Source: a virus
Lineage: Duplodnaviria > Caudoviricetes
Virus record (IMG/VR): IMGVR_UViG_3300025779_000010
Span: 1-32,161 of that record
Reading direction: 5' to 3' (one strand)
Length of the DNA stretch: 32,161 nt
Part shown: positions 4,407-19,043 of the stretch, in pieces
Numbering within the stretch: the stretch's first letter is position 1
Layout: each line of letters opens with the position of its first letter
The notes under the pieces: model-generated
The model's database searches: none
What the model saw: only the letters and a program-made list of their open reading frames with translations
What the model was told of the DNA's origin: nothing
Translations under genes and position numbers: made by a program

Positions 4407-4772
4407 TTATCCAAAGGCTACGTTGTTAATTACACCATCTGTGTCAATAATTTGTATTTCACCTGACAAAACACGATTAGTAAAAGATGTAAATGTTACT
4501 TTAGTTTTTGAAACATTAGGAATAGTAAATGCAGCTTCAGTAATTTTTTGGTCAAAAAATTGTAAAGGTGGAAATTTACCTAAAATATTTTGCCAATATG
4601 GAAGCCCTAAAGAATTATCATACCAACACTCACCGACAAACGTTCTAACGGCAGAAGCAACATCTTGAGCAATAGAATAAGGCGCATTAGCAAGAGCAAT
4701 ATTTCCGTTTACATCAAGCACAATATCCCATTGTGACTGGTCAAGCAATAATGTATTTTGAATAATACTCAT
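4407..4772 (-). CDS. Baseplate wedge/sheath initiator (gp25/Mu gp46-like)
   Basis: WDIVLD..GNIA, AQDVASAVRTFVGECWYDNSLGLPY; ATG overlaps HNH stop (TAATG at 4774-4770). Confidence 0.85.
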   Translation of the reverse strand: MSIIQNTLLLDQSQWDIVLDVNGNIALANAPYSIAQDVASAVRTFVGECWYDNSLGLPYWQNILGKFPPLQFFDQKITEAAFTIPNVSKTKVTFTSFTNRVLSGEIQIIDTDGVINNVAFG

Positions 4773-5278
4773 TATGCAGCCCTTGCAAATTCACCATGAT
4801 ATTTTTCTCTAACTTCATTTGCTACTAATTCAGCCAATTCAAAATCATCAAAATATCCTATATGTTTACTTTTTTTATTAATTCCAATTTGAACTTTCCA
4901 TTTATTTTTTGGTTTAAACCAATAAACACATTTTGCGCCCGTTGTATTATGTTTTGGCTTTTTCATATTGTAATTATTTTCTGTTTGAGTAGCTTCTCTC
5001 AAATTTTCAATTCTATTATCTGTTGTATCGCCATTTACATGGTCAATACATTTAGGACAATATCCATAATGCAATATAAAAATTAATCGGTGAGCGTAGT
5101 GCATTTTTTTGTTTATTCTTATTCTGCAATATCCATTGCCATTATCAGAACCAGCCTGTTGTCCTTTTTGCGCTCTTGAATTAACAGTTTTTTTCCAAAA
5201 TAGCTTGCCTTCATTATAATCAAATAAAGAATTAATTATTGATTGGTCAAGTAATAGAGTATTTTGAATTATTGTCAT
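4772..5278 (-). mobile_element. Free-standing HNH homing endonuclease with C-terminal AP2-like domain, fused to a duplicate of the baseplate gene's first 13 codons
   Basis: YAHRLIF...IDHVNGDTTDNRIENLR HNH core; TGAKCVYW...KWKVQI...IGYFDD AP2-like region; N-terminus MTIIQNTLLLDQS versus neighbour MSIIQNTLLLDQS. Confidence 0.92.
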
Positions 5279-5286
5279 ATATCACC

Positions 5287-5982
5287 TTACATTGAATTGC
5301 TTGGAGTTCCAGTATTTCCACCTTGTGGGTCAGAATGAGTATGGCTATTGTATAGACTACGCATTTGAGCCATTGTGTGAGTATTGGTCGCAGAATTGTC
5401 TATAATATCGCCACTTACCTTTAAAAGAGGAGTGTTCATTGTAACATTAGTTGACGAATTTACGATTGCCGTTGGCGCATTTATCGTTACGTTTGTTGGC
5501 GAAGTAATTGTTATTCCTGAACTATTAAATTGAACATATTGCGTAGGTGCTGCACCAATAATAGTCATCAAATAAACCATGTCGGACATATCATGTTTAC
5601 GATTTGAACCAGGGGCTGATACTTTGCTTGAGTTTTGAACTGTTGATATATCTCGGTCACAAACAGAAGCTATTCCAATATCACCAACAACAGGGTCTAA
5701 AATAATTCCGTTAGCTCCGCCTTGTATTCTCATATAAGGTACGTTATGAATAATTCCATGCGCCCAAATCTGACCTGAGCCATCTACTGAGCTAACCATT
5801 GGTTGAACATCTACAGTTCCAATAGGTGAAACTCCACCTGCGTTAGTCACAGAAATTACTTGAACAGGCATTGACGTTCTAACTCCTGACAATGCTGTCT
5901 TGATAATTAATTGTAATCGACCAATTTCAGAAGCATTATCTGCTGAAACGTAATTGGTTTGATAATTAGTTGTTTGCGACAT
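5287..5982 (-). CDS. Baseplate central spike (gp138/gpV-like)
   Basis: OB-fold-like N-terminus (VDVQP, P..GDIG...CDRDIS, RKHDMSD), beta-repeat C-terminus ending in HTH metal-binding motif (SHTH). Confidence 0.88.
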   Translation of the reverse strand: MSQTTNYQTNYVSADNASEIGRLQLIIKTALSGVRTSMPVQVISVTNAGGVSPIGTVDVQPMVSSVDGSGQIWAHGIIHNVPYMRIQGGANGIILDPVVGDIGIASVCDRDISTVQNSSKVSAPGSNRKHDMSDMVYLMTIIGAAPTQYVQFNSSGITITSPTNVTINAPTAIVNSSTNVTMNTPLLKVSGDIIDNSATNTHTMAQMRSLYNSHTHSDPQGGNTGTPSNSM

Positions 5983-6820
5983 AAGGTGGTGGAGCTAATG
6001 TAGTTGTTGTGAACCATGGACCATCGGGCGTTAATGTGCTAATTTCATGAGCAACGCTTTGTATTGCAAATGTTCCGTTCGCTTTAGGAAGTGAAGTTGT
6101 TATTTTCATTTGCCTTCCATTAAGAATTTGTGGATTAAATTCAGATTTTATTACAAATCCTGATTCCCAATAAGATGGATAACCAACCATTCCTGTTTGC
6201 GGACTCATATCAATAATCATATCATCTCTAAATCCGTTATTTGGAAATATAATTATTGTATTATTTTCAATAACAATTGGTATGCTTGCTGCTAAAGCAA
6301 CTTGACGCATTTGGTCAACAGCAGAGCCATATACATATTGATTTTGTAAAATTGCGTGTGCGCCATTATTTTGAAAATTTAACCCACATGATTTTGCTAA
6401 ATTTGCAATAATAACTTCTGCACTTTTTGCACCTTGATAAGTATTTGAAGCTACAGGAGTTCCTTTTTGCAAATATCCAGCAACTGCAGCACAATTAAAA
6501 GATATGTTTGGCATATTGCTTAAATCAATATAACTAGACATTAAATTGCCTTGAAAAACTTGCGACAATGCAATATCACCTTGATTCCCAGCACTTACTG
6601 TAATTGATTGTTGTTGAACAGCAACTTGATTAGTGCCAATACTTGAATATTCATTCATTTGAGCCAATGTCATGCCGTAAACTTTTAACTGCAATTGACC
6701 AAATGCCATTGAACCGCCTGGATTAACAATAGTTGCAGAACATCTCAACCCTTTTAAATTCACAACTTGTGAATTAACTCCACTAAATTGTAAATCAATT
6801 TGTCTAACAGCAAATGTCAT
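5966..6820 (-). CDS. Baseplate hub protein
   Basis: LKVYGMT, SPQTGMVGYP motifs; synteny upstream of spike. Confidence 0.8.
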   Translation of the reverse strand: MTFAVRQIDLQFSGVNSQVVNLKGLRCSATIVNPGGSMAFGQLQLKVYGMTLAQMNEYSSIGTNQVAVQQQSITVSAGNQGDIALSQVFQGNLMSSYIDLSNMPNISFNCAAVAGYLQKGTPVASNTYQGAKSAEVIIANLAKSCGLNFQNNGAHAILQNQYVYGSAVDQMRQVALAASIPIVIENNTIIIFPNNGFRDDMIIDMSPQTGMVGYPSYWESGFVIKSEFNPQILNGRQMKITTSLPKANGTFAIQSVAHEISTLTPDGPWFTTTTLAPPPYVANN

Positions 6821-16741: not shown

Positions 16742-16743
16742 GA

Positions 16744-18432
16744 TTATTTACCTTCTAAGAAACGTTTAACGAAATTGTTTTTGCGAGTAGCATGAGAATC
16801 CATAGCTACAGCAGTTGATACACCTTTGCCTTGTAAGAAAGCATTTAAGAATGTAACACGACCAGTCTTAGGTGCTTCTACACCAAGTTTTTTCAAACCA
16901 TATTTAGCCATTTTGTCCAAATCCATTTCTGAATGGTCAAATGCGCCAATATGTTTTGATAAGCGTTCATAGAGTTTTGCTTTTTCAGCAATGTTTTTCT
17001 CTACTTTAGCAACGATAGCAGCAGCGTCCATACCATTGCCACGTTCACCTTCCATTGGTTCTTTCTCAGCACCACCAACCTTACCACCAGCAAGACCCAT
17101 TTCTTCGTCTGTTGCTTCGTCATCAGGTTTTTCTGTATCGCCATCAGGTTCGGTTTCATCTTCGTCAGCAACAGCTTCTTCACCTGCTGAACCAAAAGAT
17201 TGACCCGTTAATTCTTGAATTTTTGCCAATTTTGGCATGACTTCTTCAAGGAATTTATGAACTTCCTCTAGGGTCATAGTAGGCTTCTCGCTACCTACTT
17301 CTTTGTTTTCTTCAGCCATGTTAAAAAGCTCCTTATTATCTACTGTAAAAGTGAAATGGTCTAATACTGCTACATCAGGACCCATACGTCCGTTTTCGAC
17401 TAGGGCTAGATGATTGCCTCTGATTTCTCGTTGCACATAATCATAAGCTACACCATCATAAACTCCAGGAGCATATTCATATCTGCAACGATAACCGCAG
17501 GACAATTCTTTTTTACCGTTAGCAATAAGATTACTCATTGCTTCGGAAAATACTTTGATATTACCTTTAAGATATTCACCATCGAAATAAACATCTTCAC
17601 CGATAACACCTTGAATACCTTTTGCTTCGGCAGGAGTTAAACCTTCATCTTCACTGCCAAGCATAACGTGATTATCAATCCAGGGGAGCAACTTGAATGA
17701 GTTAATACATTCCTCAGTTGATAGTTCTTCTGCTGGACGATATACGTTGTAAATCTTATCTTGTTCGCAATCAGGAGAGATTGAACCGCCTGAATATTGA
17801 AAAATACCTATTTTAGAAAGCGGATTGTCTTTTACTTCAAACCATCCGTTTGTATCATATTCACGCTTATCCATTGCTGAAGCGTTCTCCTCAGCTTTTT
17901 CGGCAATTTCTTCTTCTTCCCCGTCAATTTTGTGAAACAGGGGATTGGGTGCATCTTCAATCGTTGCCCAAACAAATTCGCTGTGTTCGTCATTTAATTC
18001 AGGTTTAAATTCACCATCATTACATCCAAACAAACGAACTTTTCCATCTTCATAAATCAATTGAAGTCCAGTTTCAGGAACGTGCATTGTTTCTTCACGG
18101 GATTCACGAATAGCACCTTCAATTGCTGATTCGCCTTCTTCAACGTGACCGCCAGGAAAGCCCCAAGAATCATCTTTGGTACGTTTTAACCAAAGGATTT
18201 TGTCATCATCTGTATAAACGATAAACGCAACAATCTTAGAATCAGGTTCTTCTTTTAAATCACGCTTATGTGACTCATGTTCTGTTTCGGTTTCTTCTTC
18301 ATCAACCGCAGCGCATTTACGAGCATTTTGATAAGATGCAGCAATAGATTGATTAAGCGGATGCCCAGCCTTAACCATCTCACGGATATTTTCTTGAATT
18401 ATTTTCTTGCTACATCCTTCTAATAAAGGCAT
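16744..18432 (-). CDS. Prohead protease/scaffold (DUF2213-like) with N-terminal Nudix hydrolase domain
   Basis: Nudix box [25 protein letters not shown]2213 motifs [29 protein letters not shown]; acidic scaffold-like C-terminus; AAGGA RBS. Confidence 0.9.
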
Positions 18433-18435
18433 AAT
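18407..18435 (+). promoter_or_regulatory. Putative sigma70 promoter for the antisense HNH gene
   Basis: TTGCTA (18407-18412), 17 nt spacer, CATAAT (18430-18435); AAGAGG RBS at 18447-18452 before ATG 18459. Confidence 0.55.
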
Positions 18436-19043
18436 GTTCCTTTCTTAAGAGGCATTTTATGAATAAATGTATTGTATGTGACAAAGAGTTTCCTCTCAAA
18501 TATAGAAGCAAGGGAATTAAACAAGTTTGCTGTTCTAGAGCTTGTTCCTATAAACATCGTGGTGATAAAGAGGTTATTTGTAAAACTTGTAAAAAACCTT
18601 TTAGAGCGCATGGACTTAGACAATATAAAGAATATTGCTCTCTTGCTTGCGTTCAAAGGGAGCCTTGCCAAACTTGTGGAGAAATAATTACTGGTAGAGC
18701 AAAGTTTCAAAGTGGAGAAAGAAAATTTTGTTCTAGAAAATGTGCAGGAATTTCTCGAATCATTAATGGTAAAGCAAAAGTTCATTACATGGCAAATGGA
18801 TTTGCTCAAACTATTAAAAAGTTTGGAAAAATATGTTGTGAAATTTGCAATCAATTTAATATTGATTTTCTTGTTGTTCATCATATAGATGAAAATAGAA
18901 AAAATAATGAACCAAACAATCTTCAAACACTTTGTGCAAATTGTCATCATCAATTGCATTGGAAAAATTCTCGCAATAGAATTAATAATATTGAAAAAGC
19001 TAAATTTATTGCTAATAATTCCACAACCTGATTTTAACGGCAT
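18420..19043 (-). other. 207-codon antisense bridge ORF starting at the relic protease start (MPLKSGC)
   Basis: ATG overlaps upstream stop (TAATG); open across the entire HNH gene; stops just past the protease ATG. The product does not resemble a folded protein family. Confidence 0.5.
18459..19031 (+). mobile_element. HNH endonuclease with N-terminal Cys-rich zinc-binding repeats, opposite strand to operon
   Basis: Three CxxC...CSxxC repeats; CEIC...LVVHHIDENRKNNEPNNLQTLCANCHHQLH HNH core; only convincing plus-strand gene. Confidence 0.92.

Follow-up and report, generated by a model that had tools for sequence, protein, structure and literature searches.

How can a selfish nuclease gene enter an essential, tightly packed phage operon if it brings neither an intron nor an intein? 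The question is raised by a 32,161-nucleotide stretch of DNA from a tailed phage (Caudoviricetes; IMG/VR record IMGVR_UViG_3300025779_000010, positions 1 to 32,161; hereafter the window), which forms part of a late region, has nearly all of its genes on the minus strand, and is near-identical to DNA in freshwater metagenomes. Two HNH endonuclease genes, HNH-A and HNH-B, are located in the starts of two virion genes, a baseplate wedge subunit gene (site A) and a head maturation protease gene (site B), both of which are presumably essential, judging by their family assignments. We consider it probable that each HNH gene is part of a mobile cassette, consisting of the nuclease gene and a foreign version of the first 13-20 codons of its target, which entered the start of the virion gene, likely by intron-less homing. 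The start of the recipient was left stranded upstream, and ribosomes are predicted to pass from the old start to the new one. This would be a route in which the selfish gene takes the start of its host gene and brings a spare. It would produce mosaic gene starts, and it would account for short duplicated N-termini and for meaningless long antisense open reading frames (ORFs) that gene callers misannotate.

Two nuclease genes between duplicated gene starts

At site A, the HNH-A ORF starts MTIIQNTLLLDQS, and its first 13 codons are the start of the wedge gene. The complete wedge gene, which starts MSIIQNTLLLDQS, follows downstream, and the two start copies form a 39-nt repeat with 82% identity. 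The TAA of HNH-A overlaps the new ATG of the wedge gene (TAATG), and the old start lies 8 nt behind the stop of the upstream gene, without overlap. At site B, the ATG of the stranded start MPLKSGC does overlap the stop of the upstream gene, again as TAATG. The nuclease gene is antisense here, and in an allele whose stranded copy differs, HNH-B ends two codons later. Translation from 19043 stops 13 nt into the new protease gene, out of frame. The features are collected in Table 1.

Table 1. Features at the two insertion sites, with positions in the window.
Feature	Position	Strand	Description
HNH-A	5278..4772	-	168 aa; HNH_3 domain and weak AP2-like C-terminus; co-oriented with the operon
Site A stranded start	5241..5278	-	Wedge gene nt 1-38, which have become HNH-A codons 1-13
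Site A replacement start	4735..4772	-	Foreign 38-nt tract
Baseplate wedge subunit gene	4407..4772	-	Site A target; phrog_120, E 2e-27
Site A upstream gene	5287..5982	-	PF18352; directly 5' of the wedge gene in empty alleles
HNH-B	18459..19031	+	190 aa; cysteine-rich N-terminal repeats and C-terminal HNH domain; antisense to the operon
Site B stranded start	19023..19043	-	MPLKSGC; antisense of the stub provides the HNH-B stop codon
Site B replacement start	18370..18432	-	MPLLEGC; foreign tract of about 60 nt; start of the phrog_2423 domain (phrog_2423, E 2e-10)
Head maturation protease gene	16744..18432	-	phrog_3778, E 8e-133; PF09979, PF00293
Site B upstream gene	19043..19405	-	PF23148-like, just under cut-off; stop overlaps the stranded ATG
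Third start-like copy	18435..18455	-	MPLKKGT; seen in the sequence, beside the HNH-B ATG
Candidate sigma-70-like promoter for HNH-B	18407..18435	+	Inside the replacement start; 9/12 consensus match
Bridge frame	18420..19043	-	207 stop-free codons; opens at the stranded start and ends shortly beyond the new one

An earlier note on this DNA, made from the letters alone, had claimed that both HNH genes lie between two copies of the N-terminal coding sequence of the downstream virion gene, that translation from the upstream copy ends at or next to the new ATG, and that the two nucleases are unrelated. The arrangement just described bears out the first two claims, and the absence of a significant alignment between the HNH-A and HNH-B proteins agrees with the third. 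Its naming of the prohead protease as a target needs revision: the site is indeed the start of the protease gene, but the target is the start motif of phrog_2423 and not the protease as such. The antisense orientation of HNH-B, the third copy MPLKKGT and the 8-nt gap at site A go beyond what it reported.

Both proteins match nuclease domains of homing families above the cut-off, HNH-A with PF13392 (E 7e-17; also phrog_99, E 8e-68) and HNH-B with PF01844 (E 3e-5; also phrog_1271, E 3e-19). The AP2 match of HNH-A (E 0.002) falls under Pfam's cut-off. In HNH-B, the residues H141, H142, N154, H163 and H167 of the HH..N..H motif are invariant among 16 aligned relatives. Sequence searches of the PDB returned no matches for HNH-A and weak HNH matches only for the HNH-B profile (best E 0.005), and cultured phages gave only 2 weak matches to HNH-B.

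The duplicated starts stand out from the other gene-start pairs. Among the 666 pairs in the window, site A has a score of 57, with 23 as the next best; the score for site B is 24, a value not attained by any of the other 665 window pairs.

Two neighbouring genes may be mentioned here. The PF18352 gene upstream of site A is presumably the baseplate spike, to judge by its annotated neighbours. A head-module gene of 430 residues (19398-20690) contains a 60-nt (20-residue) repeat and has no Pfam or PHROG match.

Empty alleles and foreign tracts

If the nuclease genes are insertions, then related phages should carry the upstream copy joined directly to the gene body, as the earlier note predicted, and such empty alleles were found for both sites. 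Many of the loci compared (L numbers) are resamples of the same phages, some possibly of the window's own genome. Among 80 wedge loci, 3 have an HNH gene of the window type, 6 a different one (43-45% identical) and 68 none, and 3 do not cover the junction. The stranded copy at site A is identical to the empty alleles L324/L325 at 38 of 38 nt, and its first 19 nt are identical to the closest empty alleles, L308-L316. Between the window and the empty L313, identity is 98% over the upstream 200 nt and 98-100% over the gene body, and 19 nt of the stranded copy match L313 exactly, whereas the new start is only 76% identical to it over the 38-nt tract. A single DNA contig joins window position 4736 directly to 5243. 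The simplest reading of these sequences would be a recipient resembling L313, a left crossover within the first 19 nt, and a cassette that keeps nt 20-38 from an earlier host resembling L324.

At site B, the best 80 of 172 metagenome loci include 4 with HNH-B, 3 with a LAGLIDADG gene and 73 with neither; in 64 of these 80 the upstream gene abuts the protease start. The stranded copy is found at 21 of 21 nt in the empty L235/L020/L021. Compared with the empty L235, the protease gene of the window is 71-74% identical over nt 1-60, and 96% over nt 61-600. HNH-B cassettes that are 97-99% identical sit behind upstream DNA that is only 71-72% identical, one HNH-B upstream flank is 100% identical to the empty L228, and the cassette occurs in 3 upstream haplotypes. 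The sharing of one cassette across divergent upstream DNA reveals that it moved between haplotypes, with its left edge in the stranded start. For site B the alignments thus demonstrate lateral movement with flanks that appear co-converted, a movement that may depend on the nuclease.

The insertions are located 38 nt (site A) and 21 nt (site B) inside the coding sequence of the empty alleles, and not between genes as the T4 seg and mob genes are. The earlier note had spoken of a recoded replacement start. A short differing tract does lie downstream of each nuclease gene, but the new starts look like alleles from another phage and not like starts recoded in place.

The same comparisons bear on the notion that the inserts are unrecognised self-splicing introns, or else packaging-type HNH genes or other non-mobile passengers, and that the repeats are tandem duplications. 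Unusual introns can escape Rfam models, and phage packaging also employs HNH proteins (PMC12724721). No Rfam family reaches its gathering score anywhere in the window, however, and a complete ORF of each target lies downstream of the insert, so that splicing is not needed; the splicing-free nature of the insertions, which the earlier note had also claimed, is upheld. RNA contigs from 4 runs lie inside HNH-B without a joint, which is a weak argument since DNA may be present; these contigs are patchy, and strand and level are not readable from them. Packaging-type HNH genes would be expected to be conserved in all relatives, beside the terminase genes. In contrast, both nuclease genes are optional, being absent from most close relatives, and they lie at least 7 kb from the terminase gene. 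Finally, the two copies of each start differ as alleles of different phages do, which argues against tandem duplication. Taken together, these explanations appear very improbable to us.

Two further observations concern the protease start. The protease gene of the empty L274 starts MPLLEG, resembling the replacement start of HNH-B, and may represent the donor lineage or a product of nuclease loss. A single-motif LAGLIDADG gene (L023/L024:2088-2510, L241-L243), a third nuclease family at this site, captures the coupled ATG of this same start, and a divergent restart overlaps with it. A change at codon 4 that might confer resistance was rejected, as it holds only inside the window's clade, where 42 of 44 distinct empty starts have K or Q at codon 4, and the HNH-B alleles, like one empty allele, have L. 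A cross-family Fisher test on this codon was dropped because 34 of 80 wider phrog_2423 loci, a query-biased set, have a residue other than K.

The HNH-B family and its target motif

A profile built from 16 relatives of HNH-B led to 21 viral and 11 genome loci, from which seven different alleles of full length were examined: that of the window and six more at 43-66% identity. All seven are antisense and directly upstream of a phrog_2423-type ("MPLKKG") start, in unrelated phages and gene neighbourhoods. The phrog_2423 family of the downstream gene is confirmed by profile for 4 of the 7 and by visible likeness for the other 3, and an MPL stub is present on the far side in 6 of 7. The comparison with empty alleles covers the window type.

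The phrog_2423 domain is often a stand-alone gene of 50 residues and unknown function, and a protein atlas has only unnamed clusters for it. Many phages have it, either by itself or attached to another protein, and about 2000 matching stretches are estimated. The protease of the window (16744-18432) is a fusion of three parts, the phrog_2423 domain of unknown function, NUDIX and DUF2213. A distant relative of HNH-B in L448 (576-1244) is co-oriented and overlaps a phrog_2423 start, with a degenerate PLKGG-like copy before it.

The third start-like copy, MPLKKGT, contains Shine-Dalgarno-like purine runs for the new start in the sense direction and for HNH-B in the antisense direction, and a similar copy is visible by eye in 6 of the 7 family alleles. 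It could provide ribosome-binding sites, be the relic of an earlier invasion, or act as an operator like that of I-TevI (PMC2988022). As for the candidate promoter in Table 1, the promoter scan was not significant (9 sites versus 6.9 +/- 2.9 in shuffles).

The open frame opposite HNH-B

The strand opposite HNH-B is free of stops in the register of the stranded start, and this frame is open in 4 of 4 occupied site-B alleles compared. HNH-B contains zero TTA, CTA and TCA codons, which the genome uses for 56% of its Leu and 36% of its Ser. The chance of a stop-free HNH-B is P 6e-5 given the codon usage of the window and 2e-4 given the gene's own third-position bias; the longest run free of these three codons in 37 minus-strand genes is 87 codons. 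Pooled over the seven HNH-B alleles, 12 antisense stops were observed versus 48.9 expected. A single ORF leads from the stub to the new start in the window, L400 and L401, ending in L400 with TAATG on the new ATG. In L403 and L416, two overlapping ORFs relay from the old start to the new, and all in-register stops of these two alleles fall in HNH codons 1-63, where the ORF in the other frame covers them. The controls behave differently: 0 of 80 HNH-AP2 genes are stop-free, the ratio for window genes is 0.97, and the co-oriented L448 has 7 stops versus 7.8.

One could assume that the antisense ORF is kept for a useful protein, or that it is a by-product of codon bias, in either case unrelated to the transit of ribosomes. 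Long frames overlapping hidden HNH genes exist in the ShiLan insertion (PMC11855218), and distant relatives of HNH-B at other sites (L407, L411, L413) also have only 0-1 antisense stops. However, none of 137 candidates is a homologue of the bridge peptide, and in L403 and L416 the frame is broken in two and changes register. Between two alleles compared, HNH-B has 13 silent and 6 replacement codon changes, whereas the antisense frame has 2 and 17. That the peptide has no homologue and changes faster than the nuclease suggests that selection acts on the open frame and not on a protein. Against codon bias stands the frequent use of A-ending codons by these genes in their other codon boxes. A useful protein or a codon-bias by-product therefore seems fairly unlikely.

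On balance, we lean towards a family of antisense homing nucleases that is specialised on the phrog_2423 start and keeps a protein-less "ribosome bridge". Its Leu and Ser codons would avoid antisense stops, or two ORFs would hand over to each other, so that ribosomes could cross the insert and reinitiate at the replacement start; the third copy could serve as an operator. The bridge would then be a rare case where selection appears to act on translation itself and not on a protein.

Several findings count against the bridge. Nine antisense HNH-AP2 genes have normal stop counts (60 versus 54.7), and so have the antisense L408, L409 and L479; a bridge is therefore not required for antisense insertion. 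In L402 and L416 the bridge stops 124 and 53 nt too early to reach the new start. At site B the replacement start carries its own Shine-Dalgarno-like purine run, and thus coupling may be dispensable, and the benefit of the bridge may be protection from polarity and not strict coupling. The closeness of the bridge stop to the new ATG is no evidence by itself, because a chance stop would probably occur within a few dozen codons in AT-rich DNA.

A further idea, that every antisense HNH gene has a back strand without stops, is ruled out by the normal counts in HNH-AP2 genes, L408, L409 and L479. The distant cysteine-rich HNH genes L411, L413 and L407, for which 19, 8 and 4.5 antisense stops are expected, suggest by their low counts that bridges may exist outside the family that targets phrog_2423.

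Recurrence in other phages

The earlier note had expected duplicated N-termini to be more common at HNH genes than elsewhere. A blind survey started from 123 HNH-AP2 motif loci (of about 420 estimated in the collection). Full length was found in 70 of them, de-duplication reduced these to 66, and 55 could be used; captures of about 4 codons or fewer escape the survey. In these 55 loci long duplications are not clearly enriched, and no overall excess of duplicated N-termini at HNH genes was found.

Captured lengths in the clade range from 0 to 13 codons, so that no sharp line separates the pattern from ordinary insertion where two genes meet. Where spike meets wedge and wedge meets J, other HNH-AP2 genes (L354-L357, L359; L334) have captured 0-1 codons. 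A sibling of HNH-A with an internal deletion survives between the wedge and baseplate J genes (L093-L098, L326-L331) as a remnant ORF of 26 codons, made of a stub of 4 host-like codons and the last 22 residues of the sibling, and leads to TAATG at a divergent baseplate J start. The remnant is present in 6 of 80 loci, and the window is empty at the same junction (4401). In Aeromonas phage vB_AsaM-56 the HNH gene takes the first 7 nt of J, and 4_D05 is empty there. Some phages have an HNH-AP2 gene on each side of the wedge gene. In L069 (2468-2989), a relative of HNH-A starts MPITLDGT, and the next gene starts MAITLNGD.

Among cultured phages, the HNH genes of the Salmonella Jerseyviruses SETP13 (L385), S119 (L390) and AG11 (L393) begin with 11 endolysin codons. 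The SETP13 and S119 HNH genes are 55% identical and are followed by different endolysin restarts; AG11 starts like SETP13. The Jerseyviruses wast, Ent3 and JD01 (L391, L392, L394) are empty at the endolysin start. This start overlaps the end of the holin gene, so that part of the capture is forced. Since cultured Jerseyviruses hold both occupied and empty endolysin alleles, start replacement is directly testable in them.

The graded captures also bring to mind ordinary intron-less homing as in T4, with a distant cut site and one illegitimate landing; the duplicated start would then be a co-converted flank and not the target. The free-standing enzymes of T4 cleave at sites hundreds of bases away from their own genes (PMC2988022), MobE makes its nick in the 5' part of nrdB, the next gene downstream, with polymorphism proposed to protect the carrier (PMC2790892), and the clade of the window itself has HNH genes with 0-1 captured codons at the same junctions. 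Nevertheless, the foreign tract ends 38 nt (A) or about 60 nt (B) into the gene, with no protective divergence further in relative to the closest empty alleles, and the HNH-B family tracks one start motif through unrelated gene contexts. We regard homing of this kind as quite improbable for the two sites.

Proposed mechanism

In the cassette reading that we prefer, the enzyme would nick the intact gene start of an empty allele, as expected from the way homing endonucleases work. Repair from the occupied allele would have its left resolution point in the first 19-21 nt and its right one where the foreign tract ends. A split target and a differing new start would protect the occupied allele itself from cutting. 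HNH-A, being co-oriented, would use the host start as its own and hand over via the TAATG overlap, whereas the antisense HNH-B could not take the host start and would instead maintain a dispensable ORF, or a relay of ORFs, along the host-sense strand.

A number of results weigh against this reading, or at least against its generality. In the 55 HNH-AP2 loci, 9 duplications at the protein level lie above the 95th percentile versus 2.6 expected, with 0 above the 99th, and at the DNA level there are 2 versus 2.3 expected. A duplicated start is present in only 1 of 4 cultured HNH-A-like loci inspected, with none in VSt472, LAh_8 and Mydo. Occupancy is low: among the best 80 of 564 phrog_2423 loci the element is found at one only, the query's own, and this set further includes one co-oriented distant relative and one unrelated antisense HNH gene. 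The seven HNH-B alleles share ancestry. Under a looser null, site B alone is borderline (protein level above the 99th percentile, nucleotide level at the 95th); we accept this duplication because the empty alleles settle the borderline statistics. With no strong enrichment in the survey and no duplication in 3 of the 4 cultured loci, start replacement is thus the extreme of a graded series and the less common condition.

Comparison with known systems

Free-standing homing endonucleases of T4 provide the closest phage parallels. The start of T4 mobE overlaps the stop of the upstream gene, and the nick made by its enzyme falls in the 5' part of the gene that follows (PMC2790892, PMC2988022). As in the window, mobE is a free-standing HNH gene without an intron, patchily distributed among relatives, with a polymorphism proposed to protect the carrier (PMC2790892, PMC2988022), and T4 segD is also antisense, between capsid genes (PMC2988022, PMC2790892). 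Unlike the insertions described here, mobE has an intergenic position, and the polymorphic region that it targets is nt 114-131 of nrdB; the available parts of these accounts describe no stranded first codons, replacement start or stop-free back strand (PMC2988022, PMC2790892). Aeh1 mobE in nrdA and T4 mobA in gene 60 are likewise free-standing nuclease genes inside essential coding sequence without an intron, but they leave two polypeptides to reassemble, whereas at our sites a complete gene is rebuilt downstream (PMC2988022).

The replacement of a gene end has its counterpart in fungal mitochondria, where mobile ORFs replace the C-termini of genes (Glomus atp6, atp9, cox2, nad3; Allomyces atp6; PMC3630166). 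Common to both are an endonuclease ORF in a coding gene, a foreign copy of one end, a stranded native end and no splicing. The fungal cases concern the C-terminus, LAGLIDADG or GIY-YIG enzymes and mitochondria; ours concern the N-terminus, HNH (and LAGLIDADG) enzymes and polycistronic phage operons (PMC3630166). Partial atp9 copies beside free-standing nucleases, one of them "along with the N-terminus", have been reported without a mechanism in the text available (PMC7487136, PMC6506933). The strategy that the earlier note saw as shared by the two nucleases is supported by their anatomy and would still have to hold for their cutting; gene-end replacement as such was already in print (PMC3630166). 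In the literature covered, which includes two recent phage surveys (PMC10448857, PMC12724721) and excludes most subscription papers and supplements, we found no phage account of start replacement or of an antisense bridge.

The ShiLan element, a non-splicing homing insertion in actinophage methylases, is the nearest parallel to the bridge, since its hidden HNH gene overlaps an open frame, without stops, that continues from the start of the host gene (PMC11855218). In ShiLan the HNH gene shares the strand of its host gene, whose protein incorporates the open frame (PMC11855218). By contrast, HNH-B is antisense, its open frame ends out of frame at the new start, and the host protein is free of the insert. 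The parts of the arrangement are thus known separately, intron-less homing from T4 and gene-end replacement from fungal mitochondria, and the stop-free bridge is its most unusual part.

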